DNA from: a virus | Reading direction: 5' to 3' (one strand) | Length of the DNA: 64,000 bases | IMG/VR virus record: IMGVR_UViG_3300035704_000393 | Coordinates: 9,677-73,676 of that record | In this document: positions 29,801 to 62,986 of the stretch, one piece after another | Layout of the letters: each line of letters opens with the position of its first letter | Position numbering within the stretch: position 1 is the first letter of the stretch | Translations under genes and position numbers: made by a program | Notes under the pieces: model-generated | What the model saw: the letters and a program-made list of their open reading frames with translations, nothing else | Told to the model about the DNA's origin: nothing | Database searches by the model: none

Positions 29801-30181
29801 GCTGGGATGATGGCCGCCCCGCAGGCCCAGCTTGCCGCAGCCGACCTGTCCCGGCTGATCAGCGATCAGGTCGCCCAGGCCACCGACCGGCTCTCCCGCG
29901 AACAGCACGAGCAGCTCCGCGAGGTCAGGGCCGAACTGGAGCGCAGCCAGGCCGAGCTGGCCGAGCTGCACAAGACCGAAGCCAAAACAGAGGAAGCGGC
30001 CAAGGAAAAAGGCAAGACCGTCCGCAAGCTGATCCACCACGTCCTCGCCCTGGCGGCCGTCGCTGTCCTGACGTTCATCGGGGTCAAGACCGGCAACCTG
30101 GAGAACCCGATGTTCGCTGGCCTGGCCGCCACCGGCCCCCTGTTCCTCCAGGAGGCCCTCGACGCGGTGAAGCGGGTCTGA
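26810..30181 (+). CDS. Head-cargo polyprotein 3 (1123 aa): duplicated ENHPxC...CH mini-domain, HhH-glycosylase-like (DUF7178-like) domain, coiled coil, C-terminal TM hairpin
   Basis: GGGAGG RBS plus GTG; GKKWY...AATCPRVQW...KRRNFYNNI...VTVDTWM...TPDGVQAAAW; four tag motifs. Confidence 0.7.
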   Translation: MPYTTAGGWASLDLAGPPPDLTGWLTGAAAIPGRPWHVVIENHPGCTPDKPHGIVAGGERLLACHATPEEARAIAEKLDLSEPSGVGDSSTGGTSAAFDPARHPRIEHGHGGGEFTHNPFGIPAPTPGTAGHLHDGITDPPPSQALKMKGAFTLAGLGPDDKLLGKVNAKLTRPLMGAGPNKGKVRRPAVPPYRQSVTKTSAAMMALIEQQGTLEEGKKWYPDEHEMNHRRALAYHVPIDRAIGVEAATCPRVQWIINQRVTNELLDEVPKAGRTIEKIKIAHHFGGGVMASFRDEGVDIILNGDVDHVLGGTKRRNFYNNIMWPGQTDSVTVDTWMLQALKPLGLNDQQAMALGEQSVAGLADGLGKVIVADALRDATARYRAQGVDITPDGVQAAAWIAIQKQLGLSDPSAHDNPRDTAYMLHAAFRSELHPRTGKGQKGAGEFARLELGGGGRHTGPGSFEHIRSIEHLADEIDTANLAGGGGRSETAAALRNVARHVGLRQVDVARQHMAVALAAAKRDKLGDLQMRDLRAIAASLDNIPKGTYPEPGFGERAKDEEAPPSIQRHRRQGPGYFPSRVHQAAAQPDPDDDGGELTDDQWDAELLLQYLEWLAEAVPGGVDLGSPGSARLTGGLAADNPAAWKLALADPRFGRLGMTTAQARQAARGTAPPPPAAPQAAWNPLRHPRNKQGEWTADGAAKDIATSAKSVHPNVWNMGGGGAVDALHRGDLREAQANLARARDFAALTHRDQDQAVMQRHLDAVTEHLKTPAQRVAEMEQADKPLINRAEVTAEPNYPGSAAKNVHDSDGNLVGMVFPHPDGKGGYQATDDQGAKIGLDRMPSEDAAIGEVVAERNRKQLTAAAASQPAGPVTVRENHPECPAHAPHGTVDSRTGELVMCHRTKDQAQDLALTLNFPDATPVTPGAVMQVGAAKGGFREDLHPRRGRGKGGGEFAPKGQGGGQPASQRTLQRRRQAEVRRHPGSPPARPGQPPPGAAGMMAAPQAQLAAADLSRLISDQVAQATDRLSREQHEQLREVRAELERSQAELAELHKTEAKTEEAAKEKGKTVRKLIHHVLALAAVAVLTFIGVKTGNLENPMFAGLAATGPLFLQEALDAVKRV

Positions 30182-33100
30182 TGGCCGCCGCACCGCCCCC
30201 GGCCGACCAGGCGAAGGCCGCGGCGGGACTCCTGAAGCTGTTCACCGGCGCAGGCGCCAGCCAGGCCGACGCGCAGGCCGCCGCCGACCACTACGTCGCC
30301 GCAGCCGAGAAGATGATCACCTCCGGCGACTACGCGCTCCCGGCTGGCGGTGCCAGCACCGCCGCGGCCTGGAACCCGGCCGCGCACCCGCGCGCCCCGG
30401 CCGGCGGCCCGGCCGGCGGTCAGTTCGCCCCCGGCGGCACCGGAGCGGCGCCGACCAACGCCAAGCCGGTCGGCGAGGGCGCCAAGGGGCCGCAGGTCCG
30501 CCAGCTCCAGGCCCGCCTCAAGGCGCTCGGCTACAACATCGCCGTCGACGGCATCTTCGGCCCGCAAACCCTCGCCGCGGTCAGGCAGTTCCAGGCCAGC
30601 CACCTGGACGCCAACGGCAAGCAGCTGAAAGAAGACGGCCTGGTCGGCCCCCTGACGACCAGCGCGCTCCGGCAGAAAACCCCCGCCAAGTCCGGCGCCA
30701 AGGGCCGGACCTCCAAGACCGGCGGCACCACGAAGACGAGGACGACGCCGAAGCCCGGGACCGCCAGGACGACCACAGGCAAGAAGACCACAGGCAAGAA
30801 GTCCCCCACCACGGCCAGAGCGATCACCCGGGGCAAGGCGCAGATCGCCAAGACCGCCAAGACGAAGACGACCAGCCCGGCCACGACCGGCGTGGCCGCC
30901 AACGACGTCCCCGGGTCGGTCACCAAGCCGCAGCAGGCCGCGGTCACCAACGAGCTGACGCTCCGCAAGATCCCCCCGGCCCAGGCCCAGGCGTTCAAAG
31001 CCGACCTGACCCGCCTGTCCCGCAACGACGCCACCGCGCTGCTGGCCTACATCCGGAACACCTACACCTTCGCCAGCGCACCCTCCGGCGACGTGTCGGC
31101 GCTGTCCGGCTTTGACGAGAACGAGACCCGCGACACCCACGGCCGGTGGACTACCGCCGAAGGCGGCCCCGGCTCCCCGGCCGCCCGGCTCCACGGCAAG
31201 CAGGTGCGCGGCCACACCCCCGAAGGCAACGACGTCCGCGGCCGGTACGACCACAACACCAAGGAAGTCCTTGACCGGTTCGGCGGCCGGCACAAGGTCA
31301 CCCGGGTCCGGGAAGAAGACCCGGTGTCCGCCGCTGGCGGCCAGTCCAACCGGGGTAACGCCGAGACCCTGCACCGCTACTGGGGCACCGGTGAAGGCGC
31401 CGCGAAGATCCGGTGGGGCACTGACGGGGACCACATGCGGTGCGTCCGCCAGCTCATGGAGCACGGCCACTTCACCGAAGAACAGGCCCACGGCTACTGC
31501 AACTTGATGGAAAAGCGGGTCACCGGCGAATACCCCGCCCAGCACGCCCACCGGGAGAAGGCCGCCGCCGGTGACACCCCGGCCGGCCTGCCCGCGCTGG
31601 TCACCATCCCCGGCGTGGACATCCTCGCGGCCGGCACCTGGGCCTTGTCGACCGGCAGGCAGACGTTCACCGCCGCCGACCTCCAGTCCGCCATCGACGC
31701 GTCCGAATGCCCCGCCGTCGGGCAGCCGGTGATCAAGATCGGCCACCTGGACCCGCGGTTCGCGCCGCAGCCCGAGCACGACGGCGAACCCGCCATCGGC
31801 CGGGTGATGAACCTGCGGCTGTCCGGCAACGGCGCCAAGATCGTCGGCGACCTGGCCGGGATGCCCGGCTGGCTCGCCGGCATCGCAGCGTCCGCCTTCC
31901 CCCGCCGCAGCGTGGAGGGCAAATACAGGTTCAGGTGCCAAATCGGGCATCAGCACCCCTTCGTGCTGACCGGCCTCGCCCTACTGGGCGTCACCCCACC
32001 CGGCGTCGGCGTGCTATCCGGCCTGCCGGACGTCGCAACCCTTTACGGCCTCACCGCCGCTGCCGCGCAGGCGGGCCAGGCGTGGCGCACCGAGCAGGAC
32101 CAGGAAGGAACCGTGATGGCCGTCACCGAAGAGGATGTCCGGCGGCAGTACTACGCCACCGCCGGCGCTCCCCAGTCTTGGTGGATCACCGAACTCCAGA
32201 TGTTCCCGCCGCAGCTGATCGTCGCCGACGAGCAGTCCGGCAAGATCTACCGCGTCGGATACCGCATCGACGGGTCCGCCGTCGCGTTCGACCAGGCCCA
32301 GGAGGTGGCCTCCTACGCCGACGTCGCCGCTGCCCGCGGCACCGGCCCGGTCGTCGCCTACGCCTCCGCGGCCGACTCCCGGGCCGTGATCCTGGCCGCC
32401 TGGGACGGCGCCGCAGCGGTCCGCCAGCTCGGCGACAACCCCTCCAGCGGCACGCTCAGGGCCATGTTCGCGATCCCCGGCACAACCAAGTCCGACAGCT
32501 CCCTGCCCCACCACGACGTGTCCGGCGGGAAGGTCGGCGCGGCCAACCCGGACGCCTGCTCCGCCGCGATCGCCGCGCTGAACGGCGGCCGGGGCGGCAT
32601 GAAGGGCGTCTCCGCGTCGCAGGCCAAGGCCGCCTACAGCCACCTGGCCTCACACCTGCGCACCGCCGGCCGGACCCCGCCCGACTTCTCCGGCGCCCAG
32701 GACGGCGACGGCGACGGCGTGGACTGGCAGACCGAGCCGGCCGAGCAGATCGGCTGGCAGTTCGCCTACATCGCCGCGACCTACGGCGGGCAGGACCCGC
32801 CCGGCGCAGAACCGGACGGCGGCCAGGAGCCCGGCACCGAACTGGAGCCGGGCTCTCTTGCTGCCCGGTGGCAGCGGCTCCTGGAGATCCGCGCCGCGGC
32901 CACCGACACCGACGCCGACGACACGGTGCAGGGCCTGGTCGCCAGCCTCGACGCCACCCTCGACCAGGCCGCCGCCCTGGCCGGCCAGGTCGACCCCAAG
33001 GCGGTCCCCGAAGCCGCCGGGCAGGTCCTCGCCCTCGTCGTCGCGGCGGAGGCCCTGGTCGACCAGCTGATGGACAAGCTCGGCATCTACGACCCCGACG

Positions 33101-33945
33101 ACACCGACAGCGACACCAGCGCCGCCGCCGAGCCCGACGAGGACGGCGGCGAGGGCGTGGCCGCAGCCGGGGACACGGTGCACGAGCCGATCCACGGCAA
33201 CTTCGACGGGTCCCACTCCCACCCGCACCGCGCGTACGGCACGCAGGGCTCCGACGAGACCCACGAGCACAAGCACACCCACTCCGGCGACGGCCGGCAC
33301 GATCACGCGCACGCAGAAACCCAAGCCGCAGCAGACGCGGCGGCCACCCAAGAAGAAGGGAACCCGGGCATGGGCTACGAGTTCACGACAGCACAGATGG
33401 CCGCGATCCGTGCGCGGCTCGGCAAGCAGGAAGGAGAGGAAGTCGCCGCCGGCGACATCGCCGCCGTGTTCGGCGCGCCGCAGCCCCCGTGGCCGGTCCA
33501 GGCCGCCGCGGCAGGCACCAGCGGCGACGGCCCGGTCGAGGTCCCGGTCATCGCCGACGGCGTGCACCTGGTCGAGGCCAACATCCTCCGCAAGTACCAG
33601 GAGGAAGCCCTCGCCGGCCAGCGGGCCGTCCGCGCCATGCACGTCGCCCAGCGCGACGGCATCCTCGCCGCGGCGATCAAGGACGGCAAGTTCGCGCAGT
33701 CCCGGCTGGAGCACTTCCAGACGCTGTGGGACCGGGACCCGGACGGCACCCGCAAGCTCGTCGCCAGCCTCGCCGGCGGGCTGGTCCCGATGGCCGCGGT
33801 GGGGTCCAACGGCGACTGGGCCAGCGACCCGGACATGCCCGGCGACTTCGACGCGCAGAGGGCGTACCGGGACCTGTACCCGGAAGACACGCAGGGCGGC
33901 GTCAGCCCCGCTCCGGGCGTGAGGGGCGGCGCCTACAGTGGCTGA
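30181..33945 (+). CDS. Prohead protease/scaffold polyprotein (1254 aa): PG-binding domain, Lys/Thr-rich segment, Mu gpI-like protease, His-rich loop, C-terminal scaffold
   Basis: TGATG overlap. PG-binding: VRQLQARL...VDGIFGPQTLAAVRQFQ...DGLVGPLT. Protease: VIKIGH...GEPAIGRV...FPRRSVEG...LTGLALLGVTPP. Scaffold: AAIKDGKF. Confidence 0.8.
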   Translation: MAAAPPPADQAKAAAGLLKLFTGAGASQADAQAAADHYVAAAEKMITSGDYALPAGGASTAAAWNPAAHPRAPAGGPAGGQFAPGGTGAAPTNAKPVGEGAKGPQVRQLQARLKALGYNIAVDGIFGPQTLAAVRQFQASHLDANGKQLKEDGLVGPLTTSALRQKTPAKSGAKGRTSKTGGTTKTRTTPKPGTARTTTGKKTTGKKSPTTARAITRGKAQIAKTAKTKTTSPATTGVAANDVPGSVTKPQQAAVTNELTLRKIPPAQAQAFKADLTRLSRNDATALLAYIRNTYTFASAPSGDVSALSGFDENETRDTHGRWTTAEGGPGSPAARLHGKQVRGHTPEGNDVRGRYDHNTKEVLDRFGGRHKVTRVREEDPVSAAGGQSNRGNAETLHRYWGTGEGAAKIRWGTDGDHMRCVRQLMEHGHFTEEQAHGYCNLMEKRVTGEYPAQHAHREKAAAGDTPAGLPALVTIPGVDILAAGTWALSTGRQTFTAADLQSAIDASECPAVGQPVIKIGHLDPRFAPQPEHDGEPAIGRVMNLRLSGNGAKIVGDLAGMPGWLAGIAASAFPRRSVEGKYRFRCQIGHQHPFVLTGLALLGVTPPGVGVLSGLPDVATLYGLTAAAAQAGQAWRTEQDQEGTVMAVTEEDVRRQYYATAGAPQSWWITELQMFPPQLIVADEQSGKIYRVGYRIDGSAVAFDQAQEVASYADVAAARGTGPVVAYASAADSRAVILAAWDGAAAVRQLGDNPSSGTLRAMFAIPGTTKSDSSLPHHDVSGGKVGAANPDACSAAIAALNGGRGGMKGVSASQAKAAYSHLASHLRTAGRTPPDFSGAQDGDGDGVDWQTEPAEQIGWQFAYIAATYGGQDPPGAEPDGGQEPGTELEPGSLAARWQRLLEIRAAATDTDADDTVQGLVASLDATLDQAAALAGQVDPKAVPEAAGQVLALVVAAEALVDQLMDKLGIYDPDDTDSDTSAAAEPDEDGGEGVAAAGDTVHEPIHGNFDGSHSHPHRAYGTQGSDETHEHKHTHSGDGRHDHAHAETQAAADAAATQEEGNPGMGYEFTTAQMAAIRARLGKQEGEEVAAGDIAAVFGAPQPPWPVQAAAAGTSGDGPVEVPVIADGVHLVEANILRKYQEEALAGQRAVRAMHVAQRDGILAAAIKDGKFAQSRLEHFQTLWDRDPDGTRKLVASLAGGLVPMAAVGSNGDWASDPDMPGDFDAQRAYRDLYPEDTQGGVSPAPGVRGGAYSG

Positions 33946-34315
33946 CTACGCCCCCGTCTACGGCCGGCCCCAGCAGGTCAGCTTCACCGCGGGCGCGGCC
34001 ATCACCGGCGGCCAGCTGCTGTCGTTCTCGGCTGCCGACACCGTGATACCGGCCGCGAACAACGCCGCCAACTACGCGGGCGTCGCCGGCCACGACGCGG
34101 CCTCCGGCGCCCCGGTCACCGTGCTGATGGGTTCCGGTGTCGTGCACGAGACGCTGGCCACCGCCGCCACCGCGGCCGGCGCGCTCGTGTTCGCCGGGTC
34201 GGCAACCGCCGGCCAGCTCGGCGCCACCAGCACCGGCTACGGCGCGGTCGGCGTGGCCGTCCGCGCCACCGCAGGCGCCAACGGGCTGCTGCGGTGGAAG
34301 GCCCTGGTGGGGTGA
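33938..34315 (+). CDS. Capsid decoration/cement protein (DUF2190-like), copy 1
   Basis: MADYxPxY...TAGAAITGGQL...GVAGHDAASGAPVTV; position between scaffold and capsid. Confidence 0.8.
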   Translation: MADYAPVYGRPQQVSFTAGAAITGGQLLSFSAADTVIPAANNAANYAGVAGHDAASGAPVTVLMGSGVVHETLATAATAAGALVFAGSATAGQLGATSTGYGAVGVAVRATAGANGLLRWKALVG

Positions 34316-34318
34316 GCC

Positions 34319-34693
34319 GTGGCCGACTACGAAGCGACATACGGCCGCCCGCAGCACCTCCAGGCCACGGCCGGGGCAGCCATCACCGGCGGGCAGGTGC
34401 TCGTCTACTCCGCCGCTGACACGGTGATCCCGGCCGCCGGGGCCTCGTCCGCGTTCGCCGGCGTGGCCGGCCACGACGCGGCGAACGGCGCCCCGGTCAC
34501 CATCCTGGCGGGCTCGGGGATCGTGCACGAGACCCAGACCACCGCCGCGGCGGTCGCCGTCGGGGCGCTGATCCAGTCCGCCGCAGGGGGCCTGGTAACC
34601 GGCGGCGCCGCGGCCGGCGCTGAGATCGGCGTCGCGATCCGGGCGGTGTCAGGTTCCGGCGGGGTCCTCCGCTGGAAGTCCACCAGGGGCTAG
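34319..34693 (+). CDS. Capsid decoration/cement protein, copy 2
   Basis: Close paralog of copy 1. Confidence 0.8.
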   Translation: MADYEATYGRPQHLQATAGAAITGGQVLVYSAADTVIPAAGASSAFAGVAGHDAANGAPVTILAGSGIVHETQTTAAAVAVGALIQSAAGGLVTGGAAAGAEIGVAIRAVSGSGGVLRWKSTRG

Positions 34694-34697
34694 GCCG

Positions 34698-35417
34698 GTG
34701 GCTGACTACGCGCCGGCCTACGGCCGGCCGCAGGACGTTACCTTCACCGCCGACGCCACCATCACCGGCGGGCAGCTGCTGTATTTCAGTGCGGCTGACC
34801 GGGTATCGCCGACCACCGGGCCGACCGCCGCGTTCGCCGGGATCGCCGGTCACGACGCCACGCCCGGCGCTCCGGTCACGGTGCTCGCCGGCTCCGGTGT
34901 CGTGCACGAGACACCCACGGCCGCGCAGCTGAACGCGCCGGCCCAGCCCGTCCCGACCACGGCCGCGGCCGGCGGCACAGTCGCGGACGGCACCTACAAG
35001 GTGGCGGTCTCCTACGTCACCGCCTCCGGTGAGACCACCGCCTCAACCCAGGGCACGATCGTGACGGCGGGCGGCGGCACGTCCACGATCACCGTCCCCT
35101 CACCCTCGGCGCAGCCCGGCGCGACCGGGTGGTTCGCCTACGTCTCCCAGGCTGGCGGCTCCACCCTGACCCGCCAGCAGGCCCCCGGAGCGCCGACGAA
35201 CATCGGCACCGGCCTGACCCTGACCGCGCCGCCCACCTCGGGCGGCGCCCAGCCGCCCGCGGGCAACACGACCGGGATCACCCCCGGCGAGCTTGTCTCG
35301 GCCGCAGCCAGCGGCCAGATCGCCGGCACCACCGCAGCCGGGATGGACATCGGCGTCGCCATCCGCGCCAGCCCCGCAGCCGGCGGGCTCGTCCGGTGGA
35401 AAACCACCCGCGGCTAG
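34698..35417 (+). CDS. Capsid decoration/cement protein, copy 3, with inserted FN3/Ig-like domain
   Basis: Paralogous N- and C-termini flank a ~115-aa insert (GGTVADGTYKVAVSYVTASGET...GATGWFAYVS). Confidence 0.8.
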   Translation: MADYAPAYGRPQDVTFTADATITGGQLLYFSAADRVSPTTGPTAAFAGIAGHDATPGAPVTVLAGSGVVHETPTAAQLNAPAQPVPTTAAAGGTVADGTYKVAVSYVTASGETTASTQGTIVTAGGGTSTITVPSPSAQPGATGWFAYVSQAGGSTLTRQQAPGAPTNIGTGLTLTAPPTSGGAQPPAGNTTGITPGELVSAAASGQIAGTTAAGMDIGVAIRASPAAGGLVRWKTTRG

Positions 35418-35527
35418 CGCCGGGACCCCCCGGGCTACATGGATACCCGGGCGCCCCGGCTGGGGCGCAAGCGCCATGCTCGCCGCTCACCCGTAACCCC
35501 GAACCCTAGCAAGCCGCGGGAGGCCCG

Positions 35528-35929
35528 GTGCCCGACTACACGCCGGTATTCCTCCCCGGCCTGACCATCACCCTCATCGCCGCCGCCGGCCTGACCGGCG
35601 GCGACCCGGTGGAAGTCGGCGGGTCCGGAACCGTCCAGAAGGTCACCGCCGCCGGGTCGATGCGGTACGTCGGCATTGCCGCCCACGACGCCATCGCCGG
35701 CTACCAGGTCACCGTGATCCTCGACCGGGCGGTGCACGAGGGCGCCGCCGACGGACCCATCAACGCCGGCGACCAGCTCGCCGCCTCACCCAGAGCCGGC
35801 CACCAGGTCACCCAGCTGCCCGCCGCGCTCACCGCCGCCGCGGCGGACGTCAACCTGGCCCGCGCCGTCATCGGCGTGGCCCTGACCTCCGCGGCCGACG
35901 GCACCACCGTCCGCTGGATGCAGCGGTAA
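35528..35929 (+). CDS. Capsid decoration/cement protein, copy 4 (divergent)
   Basis: GGGAGG RBS; MPDYTPVF...LTGGDPV...GIAAHDA...IGVALTSAADG. Confidence 0.8.
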   Translation: MPDYTPVFLPGLTITLIAAAGLTGGDPVEVGGSGTVQKVTAAGSMRYVGIAAHDAIAGYQVTVILDRAVHEGAADGPINAGDQLAASPRAGHQVTQLPAALTAAAADVNLARAVIGVALTSAADGTTVRWMQR

Positions 35930-36045: not shown

Positions 36046-36987
36046 ATGCCCCACATTTATCCTCCGGCTGCGCCGACTCTTTCCGGCGACATTCTCACCA
36101 TCAGCCGTTTCCTGAACAGCCCCGCGCTGGTTCAGAGGCGGCTTCGGACAATCGCCGAGGCGCGATTCATCGCGGACAGCATTTTGTCCGGCAGGTACGA
36201 GACGAGTGGGGGCGCTTTGCTTTATGAGCAGACCGAATCCATTTACACCAGTAAGCCGCCCGAGGCGGTAAATGCGGGTGCAGAATACCCGCGTTCGCCG
36301 GCGGCTCCCGGTCCCGCGGCATTGGCGGGAATTACAAAATGGGGCCAGGATGTGCCCATTACCGATGAGCATGTTCACCGGTACGGGAGAAGGGCAGTGG
36401 ATGTCGCGCTGCTCAAGATCGTGAACTTCCTCGTCAAGCAGGTCGACACCACCGCCCTGGTGGCCATCGGCGCGGCCATCCCCGTCGGCAACCAGATCGC
36501 CGCCACGGCCGGATGGGACACCCCCGCGTCGTCCAACATTCTGTTTGACCTGATGAGGGCCAAGGCGCAGATCGAGCAGTTCGACCAGGGATACACCGCG
36601 GACACGGTGATCACCACCGACCTCGGCGTCGCCCGGATCGTCGCCGACCGGAACATCATCGCCGGACTGGCCCGCGAGGGCGCGACCACGGTCACCTCAT
36701 CGGGTGAGCTGCGGGAAATCGGCGGCCTGCGGATCATGGCCACCAATAATATCCCCGCCCTGTCCAGCTATAAGGCGTTCGTGGTCGACTCCACCATGCT
36801 CGGCGGCCTCGCATACGAAAGGCTGGAAAGCCCGGAATACGCCGGCGATCCTGCCAACGGCGTGGAGTCCTGGACCCGCCGCGACCCGTCCGCAAATGAC
36901 CAGTGGCTGGTCCGCGGAAGGCGCCCTGTCGTGCCGATCATTCAGGAGCCGAACGCGGCCGTCGCCATTACCGGCACCACCGGCTGA
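36046..36987 (+). CDS. Major capsid protein
   Basis: 313 aa; YPPAAPTLSGDILTISRFLNSP, GAEYP, KWGQDVPITDE, PIIQEPNAAVAITG; position in the head module. Confidence 0.9.
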   Translation: MPHIYPPAAPTLSGDILTISRFLNSPALVQRRLRTIAEARFIADSILSGRYETSGGALLYEQTESIYTSKPPEAVNAGAEYPRSPAAPGPAALAGITKWGQDVPITDEHVHRYGRRAVDVALLKIVNFLVKQVDTTALVAIGAAIPVGNQIAATAGWDTPASSNILFDLMRAKAQIEQFDQGYTADTVITTDLGVARIVADRNIIAGLAREGATTVTSSGELREIGGLRIMATNNIPALSSYKAFVVDSTMLGGLAYERLESPEYAGDPANGVESWTRRDPSANDQWLVRGRRPVVPIIQEPNAAVAITGTTG

Positions 36988-37058: not shown

Positions 37059-37796
37059 ATGCCAGCAATGGATCAGGTGGCCTGGGCGAACGCCAATGTC
37101 ACCGTCGGCGGCGACACCACGCCGTACGCCCGCGGCGCGCTGCTGCCCGAGCCGACCAGCCCCGAGGAAGCCGCCGAGCGGTCTACGCTACGGCTGATCG
37201 GCGCGATCCGCAGCGTCGAGGTCGTCTACACGGCGGAGGAACTCGCCGAGCAGGCCCGGGCGCGCGGCCAGGCATCCGCGGCCCGCGAAGCCGCCCTGGA
37301 CGTCGACCCGGCGGCCCCGCTGGGCCAGCAGGTCGCCGGCTCGGCCCAGTCCGGGCCGCCCACCCTGGTCGAGCCGTCCGGGTCGCCCGTCGTCATCGGC
37401 GACGAGGACCTGCGCTCCGAGCACCAGCGGCAGCAGCGCGACGCCCAGCAGCGGGCCGACCAGGCCCAGGGCAAGCCGCCGGCCACGAACGCGACCAAGC
37501 AAGCCTGGGTCGACCACGCCGTCAGGCAGGGCGCCGACCGCGACGAGGCCGAGGGCCTGACCCGCGACCAGCTCCGCGAGCGGTACCGGGCACCGGACGA
37601 GACCGACACCGGGCCGCCCACCGCGATGGACCAGGCGGGCGCCGCCCAGTTCGCCGACAAGCAGGCCCGGGAGCAGGGCAGCCAGGCCCAGGCAGCCCAG
37701 CAGCAGGGCCAGGCCGCCGAGAAGCAGGGGCAGGCGGGCCAGCAGCAGGGTCAGGGAAGCCGGCCGTCCGGGGCGAAGCCCGGCGCCTCGGGCTGA
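37059..37796 (+). CDS. Capsid-adjacent protein with HeH/Rho-N-like motif and Gln-rich tail
   Basis: PATNATKQAWVDHAVRQG...AEGLTRDQLRERY. Confidence 0.6.
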   Translation: MPAMDQVAWANANVTVGGDTTPYARGALLPEPTSPEEAAERSTLRLIGAIRSVEVVYTAEELAEQARARGQASAAREAALDVDPAAPLGQQVAGSAQSGPPTLVEPSGSPVVIGDEDLRSEHQRQQRDAQQRADQAQGKPPATNATKQAWVDHAVRQGADRDEAEGLTRDQLRERYRAPDETDTGPPTAMDQAGAAQFADKQAREQGSQAQAAQQQGQAAEKQGQAGQQQGQGSRPSGAKPGASG

Positions 37797-37799
37797 CCA

Positions 37800-38306
37800 G
37801 TGGCCGAGTCATGGCAGCCCGCGCTCGATGACGTGGGCCGGCTGATCCCCACCAGGACCCGTGACGCGGCAGACCCGGGCTCGGACGAGATGCTCGGCAC
37901 GTTCACCACCACCACCACGCCGTCCGCCGACCAGGCCCAGGCCATGATCGACGCCGCAGTGCGCGACGTGGTGTCCCAGACCGGGCCGATCGACGCCTAC
38001 CACGACGTCGAGCTGACCGATGCCGCGCGGAACGCCGCCGCCTGGCGGGCCGCCGCCGACATCGAGCTGAGCTACCCCAACAGGGACGCCGACGTGCAGG
38101 TGTACGAGGCGCTCGACGCCCGGGCCAAGTACGAGATGACCGTCGTGCTGCGCCGCCTCCAGATCCAGGGCGAGGGCGCCCCGGAGGCGGTGCCGTTCTG
38201 GTCCGCGCCCGACCCGCCGCCGTATGCCGACGCCGACCCGGGCGACTACACCCGCCCGCTCGGCGTGTGGTACTGGGGCGGCGTCGACCCCGGCCCGATC
38301 CTGTGA
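37800..38306 (+). CDS. Head-to-tail adaptor
   Basis: WQPALDDVGRLIPTRT...GTFTTTTTPSADQAQAMI; position. Confidence 0.7.
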   Translation: MAESWQPALDDVGRLIPTRTRDAADPGSDEMLGTFTTTTTPSADQAQAMIDAAVRDVVSQTGPIDAYHDVELTDAARNAAAWRAAADIELSYPNRDADVQVYEALDARAKYEMTVVLRRLQIQGEGAPEAVPFWSAPDPPPYADADPGDYTRPLGVWYWGGVDPGPIL

Positions 38307-38626
38307 CCGTCGCGCTGCTGGTCGCCGCGTACTACTGCCGGCGGTGCGACGTGGCCGGCCGGACCGCTGAGACCCAGCCCGGCCGGGCGGAGTGCTGGTG
38401 CTGCGGCCAGCCCGCGACCATCACCGCCCGCGTCACCCCTACCGCGAACGCGTGGCCTGCGGTGATGCCAGGGGTCTTATACAAACGCGACCAGAAACGA
38501 GGCACCCGATGGCGCGAGTCCAGGTGTACTGGGACGACGCCGCGATCAAGCTCGCCACCGCCCAGCCCGGCGGCCCCGTCGACCGGGCCATGTCCCGGCT
38601 GGCCGACGAGGCGATGGCCGTCATGA
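38303..38626 (+). CDS. Small Zn-ribbon protein (3' end overlaps the next gene)
   Basis: GTGA-coupled; CRRCD...CWCCG. Confidence 0.35.
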   Translation: MTVALLVAAYYCRRCDVAGRTAETQPGRAECWCCGQPATITARVTPTANAWPAVMPGVLYKRDQKRGTRWRESRCTGTTPRSSSPPPSPAAPSTGPCPGWPTRRWPS

Positions 38627-38979
38627 AGCAGCTCGCCCCCGTCTACGCCGGCCCCGAACGCGGACCCCGGCCCGGCCACCCGCGGCAGCGAGCCCGCCGC
38701 TCCGGCACCCTCCGCGCCTCGATCCGCAAATTCAGGCAGCAGGACGGCTCCTACCTGATCGGCCCCACCGACCAGGTGGCCCCCGGCACGTTCCTGGGCG
38801 CCCTGATCGAGCACGGCACCCCGCCGCACTACATCCGGTCGACCGGCCGGTGGCCCCTGTACAACGCCGCGACCGGCCGGGCGTTCGGCCGCCTGGTCCG
38901 CCACCCCGGCACCCGCCCGCACCCCTTCATCAAGCCCGCGGCCCGCTCCCTGAACGGCCGCACCATCCACATCAGCTGA
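38509..38979 (+). CDS. Neck/tail-completion protein (HK97 gp10-like)
   Basis: SGTLRASI...IEHGTPPHYI...VRHPGTRPHPFIKPA. Confidence 0.8.
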   Translation: MARVQVYWDDAAIKLATAQPGGPVDRAMSRLADEAMAVMKQLAPVYAGPERGPRPGHPRQRARRSGTLRASIRKFRQQDGSYLIGPTDQVAPGTFLGALIEHGTPPHYIRSTGRWPLYNAATGRAFGRLVRHPGTRPHPFIKPAARSLNGRTIHIS

Positions 38980-39043
38980 CCAGCCCCCTGCCCCCTCCCG
39001 CCCAGCACCGTCATGCTCACCGCGCACCCCTGGAGGCCCGGCC

Positions 39044-40894
39044 ATGCCCGCAGCCAACCCCGACATGACCCGCCGCAACCTGCTCCGCCTCGGCCTCGGC
39101 GCCGCCGGCACCGTCGTCCTGCTCCGCGGCGGCGGACGCGCCCTCGCCGGACCCGCCTCGGCCGCCGTCGGCGCCACCCCCGTCCCCGGCCAGGACGGCG
39201 ACCTGGCCATGTTCGGCCGCATGTTCCCCAAGCTCAAGCCCTTCACCCCGGACACCAGCCTGCCCGCCGCCCTGTCCGACCTGGCCGCCCTGTCCGACGC
39301 CATGCTCCAGCCCGGCGGCCGGTTCGACACCACCCACGGCGCCGCCTACACCTACCTCGGCCAGTTCATCGACCACGACATCACCCTCGACCTCCAGCCC
39401 CAGCCGTCCGCGTTCTTCTCCTTCGCCCAGCCCAACGCCCGGTCCCCGCTGCTCGACCCCGGCGGCAACGTCGTGTTCGACTTCGAGTCCAAGAAGCTGA
39501 ACCTCTCGCAGATATACGGCGGCGGGCCGGGGATCTCCCCGCAGCTGTACGCCGCCGACGGGCTCCACTTCCTGATCCCGAAGAACGTCAACGGCGTGGT
39601 CGACCTGCCCCGCCGCGCCGACGGCAGCGCCATCCTCGTGGAAACGCGGAACGACGAGAACCAGATCCTGAGCCAGCTTCACGTGGCCATGCTCAGCTTC
39701 CACAACAACCTGGTCGACGCGCTCGGCATCCGCAACTTCACCCGGGCGATGAACACGGTGATCAAGTACTACCAGTGGGTCATCCTGCACGACTTCCTGC
39801 CGCTGTTCTGCGGCCAGGCCACCGTCGACGCGCTGCTGGCAGGGAAGGGCAAGGTCTACGACCCCGGCGCCGAGGTGCGCAAGCCGATCATGCCGGTCGA
39901 GTTCTCCACCGCCGCCTACCGGTTCGGTCACTCGATCATCAGGAACGCCTACTCGATGAACCCGGTCATCTCGCCGAACAACCGCAACGCCCGCAACACC
40001 CTGTTCGCCGGCGTCGGCGGCGCCACCGGCCCGGCCGGCGGGACCGGCACCGCGCTGACTCCCGTCGGGGACCTGCACGGCGGCTACCCCTTGACGCTCG
40101 ACCACCAGATCGACTGGCGGAACTTCCACGAGGACCTGTTCGACCCGGCCGTGCCCGGCGCGTCCCTCCAGGTCCTCAAGCAGCCCGGCGCCGACGGGCT
40201 CGGCATGATCGGCCAGTCCATGTTCGGCCAGCCCCCCGGCGCCCCCGCCGTCGGCAACGGCGCCGGCATGCCGATCGGCGGCCCCGCCGGGGTCCAGCCG
40301 GCCGGCTCCAACTCCGTCCAGTACCGGGACTTCGTGCGCGGCCACTTCTACCTGCTGCCCTCCGGGCAGGACGTCGCCGCCGCCTACGGCCTGACCCCCA
40401 TCCCGCCCGGCACCGCGATCCCCGCCTCGATCCCCGGCTTCGGCCAGGGCACCCCGCTGTTCTTCTACGTCCTCTACGAGGCATTCGTGCAGAACCAGGG
40501 CTCGCCCTCGGCCGACAACTTCGACAACACCGGGACGAACGCCGACTTCACCAACGTGCTGCTGGGTCCGGTCGGCGCCCGGATCGTCGCGGACGTGCTG
40601 CTGCGGCTGATGAAGATCAACGCCAACGGCGTGTTCTCCGGCGGGTTCTCACCGGCCCCGCCGATCGCCCCGGCCCCCGGCCAGTTCGGCCTCGCCGACC
40701 TGCTCCGGTTCGCCGGCGTGGTCCCGTCCGGCGCCAGCCCGGCGCCCGCGCTCGGCCAGAACGCCGGCCCGCAGCCCAGCACCGCCAGCCCGAGCCCCAG
40801 CGCGACCAGCCCCGGCCCGGCCGCCACGACCCCGAGCCCGTCCCCCAGCCCGAGCGTGACCGGGACGCCGAGCCCGTCACCGACCGGCACCTGA
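39044..40894 (+). CDS. Tat-exported heme peroxidase (peroxidase-cyclooxygenase / An_peroxidase family)
   Basis: Tat signal TRRNLLRLGLG; YTYLGQFIDHD, RNDEN, PVEFSTAAYRFGHS, LPSGQ, TPLFFYVLYEA, LGPVGARIVA; Pro/Ser/Thr tail. Confidence 0.9.
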   Translation: MPAANPDMTRRNLLRLGLGAAGTVVLLRGGGRALAGPASAAVGATPVPGQDGDLAMFGRMFPKLKPFTPDTSLPAALSDLAALSDAMLQPGGRFDTTHGAAYTYLGQFIDHDITLDLQPQPSAFFSFAQPNARSPLLDPGGNVVFDFESKKLNLSQIYGGGPGISPQLYAADGLHFLIPKNVNGVVDLPRRADGSAILVETRNDENQILSQLHVAMLSFHNNLVDALGIRNFTRAMNTVIKYYQWVILHDFLPLFCGQATVDALLAGKGKVYDPGAEVRKPIMPVEFSTAAYRFGHSIIRNAYSMNPVISPNNRNARNTLFAGVGGATGPAGGTGTALTPVGDLHGGYPLTLDHQIDWRNFHEDLFDPAVPGASLQVLKQPGADGLGMIGQSMFGQPPGAPAVGNGAGMPIGGPAGVQPAGSNSVQYRDFVRGHFYLLPSGQDVAAAYGLTPIPPGTAIPASIPGFGQGTPLFFYVLYEAFVQNQGSPSADNFDNTGTNADFTNVLLGPVGARIVADVLLRLMKINANGVFSGGFSPAPPIAPAPGQFGLADLLRFAGVVPSGASPAPALGQNAGPQPSTASPSPSATSPGPAATTPSPSPSPSVTGTPSPSPTGT

Positions 40895-40913
40895 CCCGGA
40901 AGGTGGTGCGGCC

Positions 40914-41351
40914 GTGGCCGTCTCCGCGTCGACCGCGATCCGCGACTGGATCAACGCCCGGCCCGGCCTGACCGGTAAAGGGAACCCGCTGGCCCGCGGT
41001 GCCTACCTCGACGGCGAGGCCATCCGGTCTCCCGCCCACGGCGCCTACGCCCTGATCGTCCGGGACCCCGGCGTCAGCGCCACGGCCACCGCCGAGGACT
41101 ACGCCGTGTCCCTGGCCCGGATCACCGCGCACGTCAAGGCCGGCACCATCCAGTCCGCCGAAACCGCCGCGGGTGCCCTGTGCGACGCCTTCCAGGCGCT
41201 CACCGGCTGCCCCGAGCCGTGCGGCGACACCGGCGTCATGGTCCTGGTCGCCGACAACTTCGCCGAGCCCGGCTACGTCCCGATGCCCGGCACCGGCGGC
41301 GAGCAGCACGAGTTCACCTGCGGAGCAACCTTCATGCTCACCGCCCGATAA
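40914..41351 (+). CDS. Tail terminator-like protein
   Basis: 145 aa; size, beta-rich pattern and position before the tail tube. Confidence 0.55.
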   Translation: MAVSASTAIRDWINARPGLTGKGNPLARGAYLDGEAIRSPAHGAYALIVRDPGVSATATAEDYAVSLARITAHVKAGTIQSAETAAGALCDAFQALTGCPEPCGDTGVMVLVADNFAEPGYVPMPGTGGEQHEFTCGATFMLTAR

Positions 41352-41387
41352 GCCGCGCGCCCAACCATCCAGGGAGGCCCACCGCCT

Positions 41388-41723
41388 ATGGCTGCACGCA
41401 CCCCGGACGTGGTGACCCGGGCCGGGGCCACGCCCACCGTCATCAGTCCCCCGACGAACGGGGACACGTTCCCGGCCGGCCCGAGCACCTATCTCCGGCT
41501 CACCACCACCGGCACCGTCGTCACGGTGACCATCACGCCACCCGCCGCCGGCGGCCCGCTGGGCCTGAGCGTCTCCGCGTACACGTTCACGATGCCCGCC
41601 ACCGGGACCAGGGAGATCGGGCCGTTCCCCGCCTACCCATTCGCCGACCAGAACGGAAACGTCACCATGACCTTCTCGGTCACCACCGGGCTGTCCCTCG
41701 AAGTCAAGAACTACGCGGGGTGA
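41388..41723 (+). CDS. Small virion structural protein
   Basis: GGGAGG RBS; NGDTFP...TMPATGTREIGPFP...F.DQNG. Confidence 0.6.
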   Translation: MAARTPDVVTRAGATPTVISPPTNGDTFPAGPSTYLRLTTTGTVVTVTITPPAAGGPLGLSVSAYTFTMPATGTREIGPFPAYPFADQNGNVTMTFSVTTGLSLEVKNYAG

Positions 41724-42163: not shown

Positions 42164-42721
42164 ATGGCACGCGGTAATGCGTCAGCTCTCGGCCTCGGCC
42201 CGGGCTATTTGTATTTCGCACCCCTGGGCACATCCGAGCCCGTCGACCTGACAACCCCGTGGGCGACAGTTTCCGCTTCCTGGGTTGCGGTCGGATATAC
42301 GGAAGACGGCTCGGAGCTGTCCTACAACCCGTCCACTTCGCCGGTGGACGTGGCCGAGGAACTGGACCACCTCCAGGTCGTGACCACCGGCCGGGACTCG
42401 TCCGTGCAGTTCTCCATGTCGCAGATCACCAACACGAACATGAAGCTCGCATTCAATGGCGGGGTGATCACGGCGGGCACCGGAATTGTCACATTCGAGC
42501 CGCCGGACCTGGGCACGGAAGTGCGGACAATGCTCGGCTTTGAAAGCGAGGACCACACCGAGAGGTGGGTTTACCGGCAGGCATACCAGACCGGGACAAT
42601 TACCCTTGCCAGGCGCAAGGGCGCGACGAATGCGACGATCGCCGCGCAATTCTCCCTGGAAAAGCCGGCGACCGGCTCGCGGCTATTCAAGGCGATATTC
42701 CAGACGCCGCTGAGGACCTGA
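42164..42721 (+). CDS. Major tail (tube) protein
   Basis: GPGYLYFAPLGT...W..VGYTEDGSELSY...VDVAEELD. Confidence 0.9.
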   Translation: MARGNASALGLGPGYLYFAPLGTSEPVDLTTPWATVSASWVAVGYTEDGSELSYNPSTSPVDVAEELDHLQVVTTGRDSSVQFSMSQITNTNMKLAFNGGVITAGTGIVTFEPPDLGTEVRTMLGFESEDHTERWVYRQAYQTGTITLARRKGATNATIAAQFSLEKPATGSRLFKAIFQTPLRT

Positions 42722-43943: not shown

Positions 43944-46900
43944 GTGCCACCGCCGGCGGACGGCTGGGCCAGGGCCATGATGGAGCTGGTCCTGCACGTC
44001 AACAAGGACCAGGCCCAGCGCGACATCAACAGCCTCGACGGCGGGCCGGCTGGCCGCAAGACCGGGCAGCAGTTCGGGCAGTCGTTCAGCCGCGAGCAGC
44101 TGACCCGGATGAACGCCGGCATGGACCGGTTCGGCAGCGACGCGGCCCGGTCATCCGACCGCGCCGGGCAGCAGTCCGGCCGCAGCTTCGGGTCCGCCTT
44201 CAGCGCGCTCACCCGCGGCGTCCTCACCTCGTTCTTCACCCGGGACGCCGCCGAGGGGATACGCGCCGCCGAGCGGTCCGGCGACGACACCGGCACCCAC
44301 TTCGCGTCCGCGTTCGGGCAGCTCACCAAGGGCATCGTCAGCTCGTTCTTCACCGGCGCGGCGGCCAGCGTGGCGGCCCGCCACGCAGCCGACTCGGGCA
44401 GCAGCTCCGGCCGCGGCTGGGGCGCGGCGTTCAGCCGCGACGCGACCTCCGCGGTCAGCGGCTTCCACAACCGGATGAAAGCCGACTCCGCCCGGGCCGG
44501 CACCGACGCGGGCACCGAAGCCGGCCGCGGGTTCGGCGCCGCGTTCCTCAACCTCACCCGCGGCCTGCTCGGCCGCGCCGACCTCGGCCGCGTCAACCTG
44601 ACCGGCGCCGGCGGCGGGGAACGCGGCCTGCTCGGCGGCATCGGCCCTGGCATCCTGGGCCTGTCCACCCGGACCGCCGGGATCGTCGGCCTCGGCGGCG
44701 CCGCGCTCGGCGCGGTCCCCGCCCTGGCCGCCGGCGGGCTCGGCGCGGGCGTCGCCGCCGGCGGAGCCGGCGCCCTGGCCGCCGGGTTCGGCATCGTCCA
44801 GTCCCAGGTCACCGACGCGATGAAGGCCCGGACCCAGGCCCAGCAGGCCGTCAAGAGCGCGACCACCCCCGCGCAGCAGCAAGCCGCCCAGGCCAAGCTC
44901 ACCCAGGCCAACGCCCAGATCAGGCAGCTCTCCCCCGCGCTCCAGTCCATCATCGCGTCCGAGACCAAGATCCAGGACACGTGGGAAAAGTTCGCCAAGG
45001 GCCTGGCCCCGCTGGTCGCCGGCCCGCTCGCGCAGGTCGCCCGGCTGTTCACCTCCCTGACCCCCGTCCTGCACCAGTTCTTCGCCGCCGCGGCCACCCT
45101 GGCCCAGCCGCTGATCGGCGGCCTCGCGAACCTCGCCCGGCAGGTGCTGCCGCTGCTCGGCGACGCGTTCCGCGCCGCCGCGCCGCTGCTGCGCCCGGTC
45201 CTGGACGGGCTGACCGGGATCATCACCGGGCTGCTGCCCGGCCTGATCGCCCTGCTGCACGCGGCCGGGCCGGCGGTGGAGGCGCTGTTCGGCGGGCTGG
45301 CCCGGCTGGGCACCAGCCTGGGCGACATGTTCGCCCTGTTCACGCCCGTGGTCACGGCGTCCGCCCAGATCCTCGGCTCGCTATTCAGCGTGATCAACTC
45401 GCTACTGCCTGTCATCGCGCAGCTCGCTGGCGTTTTCGCCGTCGCGCTGGCCCCGGTATTCTCCCAGTTCGCCGGGATCGTCGTCTCCCTGCTGCCGTTC
45501 CTGGTCACCCTCGGCCGGATCGTCGCCTCCCTGGCGGGCGCCATCCTCGGCGACCTGGTAGCCGCCTTCGGCGCCGTCGCCGCCCTGTTCCGCACCATAG
45601 GTCCCGCCCTTAACACCTTCGCCAAGGCCATCTCCGGTGTCTTCACCGTGCTGGAAAACTCGGGTGTCTTCGCGGTCCTCGGCGATGCCGTCGAGCAGCT
45701 GGCCAAGCCGCTGGGCGCCCTGATCGTCGCGCTGGTCCGCGGGCTCACCCCGATCATCCCGCCCATCGTCGGCCTGATCGCCCGGCTGGCCGCCATTTTG
45801 ACCGCCGGCCTGGCCAAGGCCATCGCCGCGCTGCTGCCGCCGCTGACCCTGCTGGTCAATAACGTCCTGGCCGCCCTCATCCCTCTCCTGCCAGTCGTCA
45901 TCCCGCTGCTGACCGTGTTCACGCAGATTTTCACGCTCGTCCTCGTCCGGGTCATCACCGACCTGGCCAAGGCCCTCAACGAGGTCTTCAACGTCGTCCT
46001 CACCCCCGGCGTGCTCCGCGCCGTCGCCGTCGGCATCACCGCGATCTGGCTGGCCTTCAAGCTGTTCGGCCTGTACAGCCTGGTCACCAACCCGATCGGC
46101 CTGATCATCGTCGCGATCGGCCTGCTCGTCGTCGGCATCGTAGAACTCGCCACCCACTGGCACCAGGTGTGGACGGCGATCACGGCGGCAGCCCAGGCCA
46201 CCGGCCGGTTCTTCACCAGCCTGTACCGCAACCAGATCGTCCAGGACATCCTCGCCGTCTGGTCCCTCGGCCTGATCCCCCTGGCCCAGCACTGGACCCA
46301 GGTCTGGGCCGCCATCTCCAGGACGGCCGTCGCCACCTGGCACGCCATCTACGGGGCTGTCCTGGCCCCGCTGATCAGCTGGTTCACGGTCTCCCTGCCG
46401 CACGGCCTCGGAGTGGCCACCAACCACGTGCACCAGTGGTGGTCCGACGTCGCCAACGCGTTCTCCGGCGGCTACCACACCGTGTTCAACAACACGCTGG
46501 CCCCGTTCATCCGGTTCTTCACCACCACCATCCCGCAGATTTTCGCCTCGTCGCTAGCCGGAGCCCGGCAGTGGTGGGCCAACATCGGCGGCGCCTTCCG
46601 CTCCGGGTGGAACGCGGTATGGAACAACGTCATCGTCCCGATGCGCAACCTGTTCACCCGGGACCTGCCCAGCTGGTTCTCCACTGCGGTCTCCGCGGTC
46701 GGCCGGTTCTGGTCCAACATCTATAACTCGATCCGCGGGCCGGTCGTCCGGGTGGTCGACACCGTGCTCAACGGCATCATCAGCGTCTTCGACTGGATCA
46801 CCAGCCACGTCGGCCTCGGGAAGCCGATCAAGCCCATCCACCCGTTCGGCCTCGCCGCCGGCGGCAAGGTCGGCAAGGTCCTGTCCGGCACCGGCCCGAC

Positions 46901-60368: not shown

Positions 60369-60417
60369 CAATACCCCGCACGAATCCGCTGGAATGGACC
60401 GAAAGGGCTCAGACGAA

Positions 60418-62958: not shown

Positions 62959-62986
62959 GCCGCGAACCTACCATCTGGAGGCAGCT

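Follow-up and report, generated by a model that had tools for sequence, protein, structure and literature searches.

A predicted exported heme peroxidase encoded among the virion genes of a provirus belongs to a phage lineage that appears to be exchanged as a single-gene cassette

A 64,000-nucleotide (nt) stretch of viral DNA (hereafter the window), corresponding to bases 9677-73676 of the 73,676-bp IMG/VR provirus record IMGVR_UViG_3300035704_000393 (CheckV estimate 94%), contains at 39044..40894 of the + strand a gene for a heme peroxidase of the peroxidase-cyclooxygenase superfamily, placed among genes for head, neck and tail proteins. The gene probably specifies a late-expressed, exported enzyme that acts at or outside the host envelope and that belongs to a cassette lineage maintained by phages. 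This reading rests on computation: the fold, motifs, signals, genetic context, phylogeny, mosaicism and purifying selection described below.

The open reading frame (ORF) encodes 616 amino acids (aa) plus a stop codon, is preceded by a ribosome-binding site (GGAGG; 39032..39036, + strand) located 7 nt before the ATG, and shows the codon signature of a true gene, its GC content at third codon positions (GC3) being 0.98 in DNA of 72% GC. The Pfam model PF03098 (An_peroxidase) matched the product with 42.1 bits, against a gathering cutoff of 25 bits (E = 5.7e-11); since the match covers only residues 199-306, the protein is best viewed as a divergent member of this family. The ORF was found exactly where a preliminary description of this DNA, made from the sequence alone, had placed it, and the catalytic motifs named there are present. 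These motifs, all on the + strand, are the distal GQFIDHD (residues 106-112, with Q107, D110, H111 and D112; 39359..39379), RNDEN (residues 202-206; 39647..39661), which includes the catalytic Arg202 and Glu205, followed by Asn206, and YRFGHS (residues 292-297; 39917..39934), which provides the proximal heme ligand His296. When a profile of 20 homologues was compared with the PDB, a cyanobacterial peroxidase (8s6c) and myeloperoxidases (MPO) were recovered at E values of 4e-5 to 6e-4. The profile aligned GQFIDHD with GQLLDHD of MPO, and the segment running from the R-x-x-E helix through YRFGH with TRSSEM...FRYGH; a single-sequence search agreed. In the numbering of 6azp_A, Q107, D110 and H111 correspond to Q91, D94 and H95, R202 and E205 to R239 and E242, N206 to M243, and H296 to H336. 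Residues Q107, D110, H111, R202, E205 and H296 are invariant across the 20-sequence alignment, the exception being N206, which occupies an MPO-specific position.

In this family, the residues esterified to the heme and the Met of MPO together distinguish lactoperoxidase-like from myeloperoxidase-like chemistry. As expected for the halide-oxidising, LPO/LspPOX-like branch with covalently linked heme, both heme-ester residues are kept in the phage protein, D110 and E205 aligning to D94 and E242 of MPO and being invariant in the 20 sequences, while the Met that makes the sulfonium link of the myeloperoxidase type is absent, its place (Met243) being taken by Asn206. On these grounds the chemistry is predicted to be lactoperoxidase-like rather than myeloperoxidase-like, and oxidation of chloride would be unlikely. 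Passages of PMC4420034 describe the Glu of the -X-R-X-X-E- helix and the distal Asp as forming ester bonds to the heme, and are also one source of the rule applied here.

The AlphaFold2 model of the protein (predicted template modelling score 0.67; mean predicted local distance difference test, pLDDT, 59.9) has a confident helical core and low-confidence stretches at residues 1-52, 298-349, 373-422, 489-502 and 562-613. A Foldseek search with this model retrieved solely peroxidase-cyclooxygenase structures (E = 6e-8 for 8s6c, 9e-6 for MPO and 1.5e-5 for DdPoxA), with a probability of 1.00 and E values of 6e-8 to 8e-4 for 18 chains. VIA-align gave Z scores of 15.9 for 8s6c (376 residues aligned, root-mean-square deviation 4.2), 15.2 for MPO and 14.8 for DdPoxA; the 376-391 residues aligned lie within residues 47-562 of the model, which delimits the fold domain to 39182..40729 (+ strand). 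Cyclooxygenases and alpha-dioxygenases were nearly tied with the peroxidases in this comparison (Z 13-14), whereas Foldseek set them apart (E = 0.03-1.2, versus 6e-8 to 1e-4 for the peroxidases). The ESM Atlas model gave a TM-score of 0.66 to actinobacterial An_peroxidase clusters (residues 36-566) and of 0.60 to a nematode ShK-peroxidase cluster. A Pfam match above its cutoff, a fold covering the whole domain and intact catalytic residues bear out the proposal that this is a complete peroxidase-cyclooxygenase enzyme. In one cluster of the Atlas the An_peroxidase domain is fused to LysM, an indication that attachment to peptidoglycan occurs among the cellular relatives.

Residues 1-35 (39044..39148, + strand) have the form of a signal peptide for twin-arginine translocation (Tat). 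Direct reading gives, in this order, T9-R-R-N-L-L-R15, a Gly/Ala-rich h-region (LGLGAAGTVVLL), RGGGR and A33-L-A35, with cleavage probably occurring after A35. At least 90% of the sequences in the 20-homologue alignment retain the R10/R11 pair, a Tat-like motif is present in 79 of the 120 top database homologues, and the Pfam Tat model PF10518 is listed on 11% of one near ESM Atlas cluster. Leaders were found in all 20 viral-clade copies read, of the Tat type in subclades A and B (defined below) and of the Sec type in subclade C and in loci L193 and L195. A crude screen of the ∼50 genes called in the window recognised the peroxidase as the sole one with a Tat-like N-terminus. The predicted Tat export, already proposed in the preliminary description, is thus well supported by the motif, the Pfam model itself remaining below threshold.

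At the other end of the protein, residues 579-616 (40778..40891, + strand) form a variable tail rich in Pro, Ser and Thr, delimited by the end of DNA homology, the alignment and pLDDT values below 50. The tail begins where homology with the other subclade-A genes ends (40776/40777), differs among genes in length and sequence, and was seen in 9 of the 120 top homologues. It had been suggested to be the remnant of a lost C-terminal domain, but this found no support, because the 50 closest homologues are all 628 aa or shorter and a search for longer relatives gave a single protein (1232 aa, 31% identity; weak evidence); the tail looks instead like a variable add-on. Its O-glycosylation would be possible, in line with passages of PMC11727336 according to which Tat-exported actinobacterial proteins can be O-mannosylated.

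Genes of this kind proved to be atypical of known phages, as the preliminary description had held. The peroxidase has many homologues: of 8,000 scored candidates, 3,266 proteins reached E ≤ 0.001, with ∼50 clusters 59-90% identical to the peroxidase and a further group at 40-45%, nearly all of them metagenomic; PF03098 was present on all but two of the 120 homologues listed. No relative was detected by tblastn in 50,697 GenBank phage records, no PHROG family matched the protein, and BFVD contained a single match at E ≤ 0.001, the haem peroxidase of the giant virus Orpheovirus IHUMI-LCC2 (E = 1.3e-4). In contrast to these collections, IMG/VR contained relatives at 7 loci when searched with the single protein and at 34 when searched with the profile, and 37 of 107 pattern matches were confirmed; identical peroxidase loci recur in several metagenomes. 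In the literature outside subscription journals, no description was found of phage-encoded members of the peroxidase-cyclooxygenase superfamily; passages of the Psh preprint, whose subject is other than phage-encoded peroxidases, mention PF03098 only as a domain fused to DUF4214.

When 169 distinct peroxidase domains (23 viral, 79 genome and 67 metagenome rows; sequences shorter than 380 aa dropped) were analysed with FastTree, 21 of the 23 viral rows fell in one clade, and the viral label changed 5 times on the tree, compared with a mean of 21.9 after shuffling (0/500 shuffles as low). A short IQ-TREE search (model LG+C20+F+G4) was performed on 61 rows, leaving out L199 and L201, which have very long branches, and the cellular rows outside a 74-row clade, except for 12 outgroups. 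The support in this tree is of the SH-like type (SH-like approximate likelihood-ratio test, SH-aLRT), not bootstrap, and the outgroup rows used for rooting are not themselves monophyletic. A 24-row clade (20 viral and 4 cellular rows; SH-aLRT 99) enclosed a 17-row clade that was entirely viral (SH-aLRT 95), and the viral label changed 3 times, the shuffled mean being 17.8 (again 0/500 as low). Three subclades were resolved: A, containing the window, L006, L003, L004 and L007 (SH-aLRT 100); B, containing L174-L177, L182 and L197 (SH-aLRT 99); and C, containing L183, L185-L187, L190 and L198 (SH-aLRT 100).

Cellular relatives are more distant. The best matches listed from species-representative genomes were 30-36% identical, and the metagenome and genome matches listed were relatives at 30-41%, besides two loci already in the set. 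At least 41 of 401 sampled Actinomycetota genomes had a match at E ≤ 1e-20, none above 48% local identity (a stricter first look; three of the 41 are unpublished). A phmmer search with 40 phage structural proteins, of limited sensitivity, found none in 80 genome loci, and Pfam recognised no capsid, portal, terminase or tail family among 134 neighbours of 18 genome loci, seven of which are placed inside or next to the phage clade (L023, L030, L034, L045, L011, L038 and L052). The neighbours were transporters, regulators and dehydrogenases; a transposase adjoins L023, and a DNA methylase is found close to L045. The family therefore seems to be mainly chromosomal, with one lineage in phages and a few chromosomal copies that would descend from it or have given rise to it, and the peroxidase of the window is a member of a phage-specific lineage rather than a one-off capture. 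Two of the chromosomal loci showed further features. In Actinocorallia libanotica (L066, 6641-9697, - strand) a second An_peroxidase gene (1018 aa, E = 1.4e-93) adjoins the family member, and in Kocuria oceani (L014, 7187-9568) the genes directly upstream of the one for the chromosomal peroxidase encode a multicopper oxidase and a signal peptidase (S26), an arrangement that may represent a secreted oxidative gene cluster.

To describe the surroundings of the viral copies, genes were called by a GC3 heuristic and up to five per side were annotated with PHROGs (L196, L199/L200, L201, L202, L203 and L189 were left out of the survey). A head, connector or tail gene lay within five called genes of the peroxidase in 14 of 20 distinct viral loci. 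Among subclade-A loci, the gene stands between Neck1 and tail genes in the window, follows a head-tail adaptor and precedes, at some distance, the major tail protein and tape measure in L006, comes after portal, protease and (not immediately) connector and before a glycosyltransferase and an epimerase in L004, and comes after portal, protease and head decoration in L007. In subclade B, L174 has capsid, then peroxidase and Neck1; L175, tail terminator and peroxidase; L176, capsid, connector, Neck1, peroxidase and a 145-aa gene; L177, head decoration, peroxidase and capsid; L182, capsid and connector, then the peroxidase and, further on, a glycosyltransferase and an epimerase; and L197, terminase, portal, peroxidase, protease and capsid. 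In subclade C, the peroxidase is found between terminase/portal and a virion protein in L183, between a peptidase and, further on, the capsid gene in L185, and between terminase and portal/protease in L190. In L195 it follows tail genes and a phosphodiesterase. The glycosyltransferase (phrog_14945/phrog_2170) and nucleotide-sugar epimerase (phrog_540) genes that come after the peroxidase in L004 (9764-11516), L182 (7055-9907) and L197 (15029-16912) lie within the structural modules of these three backbones; they are additional non-structural cargo, possibly serving to glycosylate proteins of the virion or exported ones.

Comparison of these loci showed the peroxidase to be uncoupled from the backbone that carries it. 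The window and L176, in which the gene occupies the same slot, share 82% identity in the capsid protein, 54% in Neck1 and 64% in gene-3, yet only 42% in the peroxidase (subclade A versus B). Likewise, L007 and L177 share a slot, a head decoration protein (86%) and a phrog_3842 protein (73%), with peroxidases 39% identical, and L004 and L182 share a slot and a connector (66%), with peroxidases 41% identical. In contrast, the window and L006 have different backbones, with no adaptor or tail tube in common and 47% identity in part of the tape measure, and their peroxidases are 83% identical; peroxidases of subclade B, 77-82% identical, are spread over four backbones. DNA homology between the window and L003, L004, L006 and L007 (73-83% nt identity) begins at 39053-39062 and ends at 40776-40777. 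The homologous segment thus takes in the ORF without its first few codons and without the Pro/Ser/Thr tail, and the flanks have no homology to these four loci. The DNA of L176 matches the window on both flanks. In L174 the peroxidase lies one gene earlier than in the window and L176, before Neck1. The mismatch of peroxidases within a slot, together with ORF-only homology across backbones, indicates exchange of single genes into conserved slots: each backbone appears to keep the slot as the peroxidase allele is exchanged.

The gene also bears signs of constraint. The ratio of nonsynonymous to synonymous substitution rates (dN/dS, NG86) was 0.27-0.58 in 25/25 within-subclade pairs, values that are probably upper estimates since the extreme GC3 bias depresses dS, and the three catalytic motifs are kept in all 20 viral-clade copies read (RDDEN replacing RNDEN in L007). 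In the window, gaps of 64 nt upstream and 19 nt downstream separate the peroxidase from its neighbours; the genes are all co-oriented, and its base composition does not differ from that of the flanks. Other loci are more compact: stop and start codons overlap as TGATG in L176 and as ATGA in both L185 and L186, and the gaps in L183 are of 3 and 8 nt. This spacing argues for co-transcription of the peroxidase with the late genes. A consensus scan, which is unsuited to DNA of 72% GC and to high-GC hosts, found 0 promoter-like sites and no terminator at the ends of the gene.

The scheme that we infer from these data, in which the binding of heme, export through Tat, expression at a late stage, the chemistry and the benefit are all deduced, would be as follows. 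The peroxidase would be transcribed together with the late (virion) genes, and the protein would fold with its heme in the cytoplasm before being exported by the host Tat system. Once exported, it would use H2O2 in the cell envelope, and outside the cell after lysis, to oxidise small donors, these being Br-, I-, SCN- or phenolic compounds rather than Cl-. The lineage would be maintained in tailed phages of high-GC soil bacteria and would move between backbones as a single-gene cassette, each backbone retaining a fixed slot in its head-neck-tail operon. The peroxidase type would then track something besides the phage backbone, the host or niche being the simplest candidate; a type decoupled from the backbone suggests matching to host or niche, which in turn suggests a target at the host surface or in its immediate surroundings. 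The selected function would concern that surface, or those surroundings, at the time of virion release, and could be either the removal of peroxide or the production of an oxidant that alters the envelope, two options that seem about equally likely. The preliminary description had put forward oxidative protection, or halide or lipid oxidation at the host surface, as possible roles.

Several observations weigh against this scheme. No structural neighbour was found within five genes in six of the 20 loci (L003, L186, L187, L192, L193 and L198; L186 is syntenic with L185), and the association with structural modules is inflated by ascertainment, IMG/VR contigs being recognised largely by their structural genes. 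Given this effect, and since structural genes fill much of a phage genome, the figure of 14/20 shows ownership by phages rather than a specific link to morphogenesis. The Pfam model TAT_signal (PF10518) reached 14.6 bits against a cutoff of 22.7, in a full-length alignment to residues 7-26, and the NCBIfam models gave no match to the leader. The pLDDT is below 60 over half of the structural model. The gene may have an internal promoter active in lysogeny, which would be compatible with a scan unsuited to 72% GC, and a run search found no RNA run containing the sequence of positions 38300-41700. Four chromosomal copies with cellular neighbours (L023, L030, L034 and L045) nest in the phage clade, from which it follows that transfer into or out of chromosomes takes place as well. 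Any advantage to the phage is conjectural.

A different explanation takes the gene as a lysogenic-conversion moron, expressed from the resident prophage to the advantage of the lysogen, either as an antioxidant of the envelope, for which prophage-encoded periplasmic Cu,Zn superoxide dismutase provides a precedent, or as a source of antimicrobial hypohalite or hypothiocyanite directed at competitors or grazers. The record is indeed that of a provirus, lying in a 162-kb contig, secreted homologues are frequent on chromosomes (the at least 41 of 401 Actinomycetota genomes mentioned above), a peroxidase type independent of the backbone fits adaptation to the host, and the structural neighbour DdPoxA is described as belonging to an antibacterial defence. 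However, the start/stop overlaps of L176, L185 and L186 leave no space for an autonomous unit, the composition of the gene is that of its flanks, the 9.7 kb to the left of the window held no recognisable integrase or repressor, and the search for a promoter or terminator of its own, a weak test, was negative; we consider this explanation rather unlikely. The enzyme might otherwise be directed at the virion, for instance hardening capsids or tails after release through dityrosine or sulfilimine-type cross-links formed by oxidation, or being carried with the particle. Cross-linking of extracellular matrices is the chemistry for which peroxidasin is known. This enzyme belongs to the same superfamily (PMC3533774), and in different backbones the phage gene is repeatedly found beside genes for capsid, decoration, portal, protease and neck proteins. 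Such a role is nonetheless hard to reconcile with a cleavable export signal in every copy, virions being assembled in the cytoplasm; the association with structural modules is partly an effect of ascertainment, and neither Pfam nor PHROGs revealed a docking or structural domain in the peroxidase. It therefore seems very improbable.

It could also be argued that a host gene was attributed to the phage by mistake, through a chimeric assembly or a wrong provirus boundary, or that the gene is a decaying passenger devoid of function. Metagenome assemblies can be chimeric, and Logan unitigs break inside the gene. Three soil-metagenome runs contain 0.99, 0.99 and 0.80 of the sampled words, the first two possibly being the source sample. 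In run X1, a 9,366-bp contig spans 38300-39378 and a 24,485-bp contig spans 39350-41700, with 0 differences each; run X2 gave the same picture with contigs of 9,674 and 10,386 bp. Both junctions of the peroxidase gene were thus bridged with 0 differences in two runs, and the sequence is interrupted once only, where 29 nt of overlap fall on the GQFIDHD-coding motif (39350-39378). Over this motif (39326-39439) the depth rises two- to ten-fold in four soil runs, because other organisms share those words: its DNA is common to many organisms in the sampled soils. In addition, L176, a contig from another data set, keeps the same neighbours on both sides, and identical loci occur in several metagenomes. 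A chimera at the junctions, the risk raised in the preliminary description, is accordingly unlikely. With an intact ORF, all catalytic residues in place and dN/dS below 1, misattribution or decay is largely refuted and scarcely credible.

Returning to the late-expressed, exported peroxidase of a phage-maintained lineage, a bolder extension can be formulated, to which we give little credence. Tailed phages of soil Actinomycetota would maintain an exported heme peroxidase lineage of their own, with extracellular peroxide chemistry as a step of their life cycle. At the host surface, the enzyme could destroy receptors oxidatively or block superinfection, or loosen the envelope or matrix for egress; among released particles, it could cross-link and protect virions. 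Matching of the enzyme type to the host would account for a slot that is kept while its allele is exchanged. Phage accessory genes and the enzyme superfamily are both known, but no description was found, outside subscription journals, of a phage-specific lineage of secreted heme peroxidases carried in virion operons and exchanged as cassettes. If the enzyme is active, it would add extracellular oxidative chemistry to the effects of phages on their hosts or surroundings in soil, and it would open a way into the physiology of a bacterial peroxidase family for which passages of PMC4420034 give the role as unknown. The pattern of a conserved slot with swapped alleles is a clean case in which the drivers of gene-level mosaicism among phages can be studied.

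The rest of the window is organised as a tailed-phage genome. According to PHROGs and Pfam, the terminase large subunit (6365-7966) is followed at some distance by a 3018-aa portal fusion (15866-24922), a DUF7178 protein and a protease with a peptidoglycan-binding domain. Next come four cement-like genes, described below, the major capsid protein (36046-36987; phrog_1650, E = 6.5e-69) and the head-tail connector (37059-37796; phrog_2322), then an unlabelled gene and the upstream neighbour of the peroxidase, a Neck1/tail completion gene (38392-38979, + strand; phrog_5, E = 9.3e-13) whose product is 54% identical to its L176 orthologue. The downstream neighbour (40914-41351, + strand; 145 aa) is possibly a tail terminator; it has no match of its own, and orthologous DNA lies directly after the L176 peroxidase. 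The placement between neck and tail-terminator genes, co-oriented and tightly spaced, that had been claimed earlier holds for Neck1 and for the spacing, while the tail-terminator label is weak: the L174 orthologue matches phrog_123 at E = 0.026, and the label is otherwise positional. Further downstream are a tail protein (phrog_16194), the major tail protein (42164-42721), the tape measure protein (43944-48326), minor tail genes and an endolysin (58127-59299) with an Rv2525c-like glycoside-hydrolase domain and PG_binding_1. The idea that this endolysin is Tat-exported was rejected, no Tat-like N-terminus being present at its called start; nor was one present in the protein encoded at 60394-61164, which combines a transglycosylase-like domain with a weak LysM match.

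Capsids of phages of Gordonia, Mycobacterium and Arthrobacter are similar to that of the window. Judged by this protein, the closest phage in culture is Gordonia phage Kiko (48%), whose connector-to-major-tail interval holds only genes of 290-400 bp and no peroxidase gene. Together with the 72% GC, a DUF5753/HTH_31 regulator and the taxa of the ESM Atlas, the likeness of the capsids suggests a high-GC host, possibly an actinobacterium. An identical protein (P0121) is on record on a 162,454-bp contig, which indicates that the provirus was cut from a longer, presumably bacterial, contig; Pfam gave no match for 11 ORFs in the 9.7 kb to the left of the window, and no integrase was recognised there. 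At the right end of the record, a tRNA-Asp (GTC) gene (63260-63340, - strand) lies inside an open-ended + strand ORF (62714-64000); the tRNA gene possibly marks the attachment site; alternatively, the ORF could be spurious. Immediately upstream of the capsid gene there is a row of four co-oriented genes (125, 124, 239 and 133 aa; 33938-35929) that all match Phage_cement_2/phrog_673 and form a tandem family of decoration- or scaffold-like proteins. The ORFs at 26810-30181 (1123 aa) and 29452-33945 (1497 aa) overlap by ∼730 nt in different frames, which could be due to a wrong start, a programmed frameshift or a fusion; the 1497-aa ORF contains a peptidoglycan-binding domain and two matches to head-maturation proteases (phrog_3894 and phrog_2976). 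A 686-aa ORF (24511-26571) overlaps the 3′ end of the portal fusion and matches Arr-ms rifampin ADP-ribosyltransferase below threshold (E = 1.6e-4; 22.2 versus 25 bits).

Among known systems, mammalian lactoperoxidase and myeloperoxidase share with the phage peroxidase the fold, the catalytic His and Arg and both heme-ester residues (Asp and Glu); the phage enzyme differs in having Asn206 at the place of the MPO Met, no propeptide, a Tat leader and a bacterial or phage origin. MopA proteins differ from the phage peroxidase in being large, in containing Ca-binding repeats and in using type I secretion. These Mn(II)-oxidising animal heme peroxidases nevertheless belong to the same superfamily, are secreted by bacteria and have an oxidative role outside the cell (passage of PMC8218464 citing Anderson et al. 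2009). Closer counterparts are the single-domain, secreted peroxidases of the same fold, namely 8s6c from Cyanobacterium TDX16, DdPoxA (6erc), LspPOX/Family 6 and the short peroxicins/Family 5 (Zamocky et al. 2015). These short bacterial and protist enzymes share the distal Q-x-x-D-H-D, the R-x-x-E and the proximal His with the phage peroxidase, which differs in being phage-encoded and placed in a viral clade. Compared with the 8s6c and DdPoxA structures, it is only 15-18% identical, and it has three low-confidence insertions and the Pro/Ser/Thr tail. The only other viral proteins found with this fold are those of Orpheovirus and the GVMAG contigs L199/L200; these are giant viruses of eukaryotes, and the L199/L200 homologue (697 aa, 27% identity, 25% GC) sits on long branches outside the phage clade.

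The nearest genetic parallel is provided by phage morons. The lom and bor genes of lambda and prophage sodC are lysogenic-conversion genes located in late operons, and, as with the peroxidase, an exported non-structural protein is encoded between the virion genes of a temperate phage. The peroxidase gene further resembles them in its presence, absence or shift between collinear relatives, being missing from the corresponding place in the related cultured phage Kiko and lying one gene earlier in L174. It departs from them in being translationally coupled to its neighbours, with no autonomous promoter or terminator found by a scan unsuited to high GC. Moreover, instead of occurring sporadically, it appears to be old in phages, its subclades being ∼40% identical, and to be replaced allele for allele in a conserved slot.

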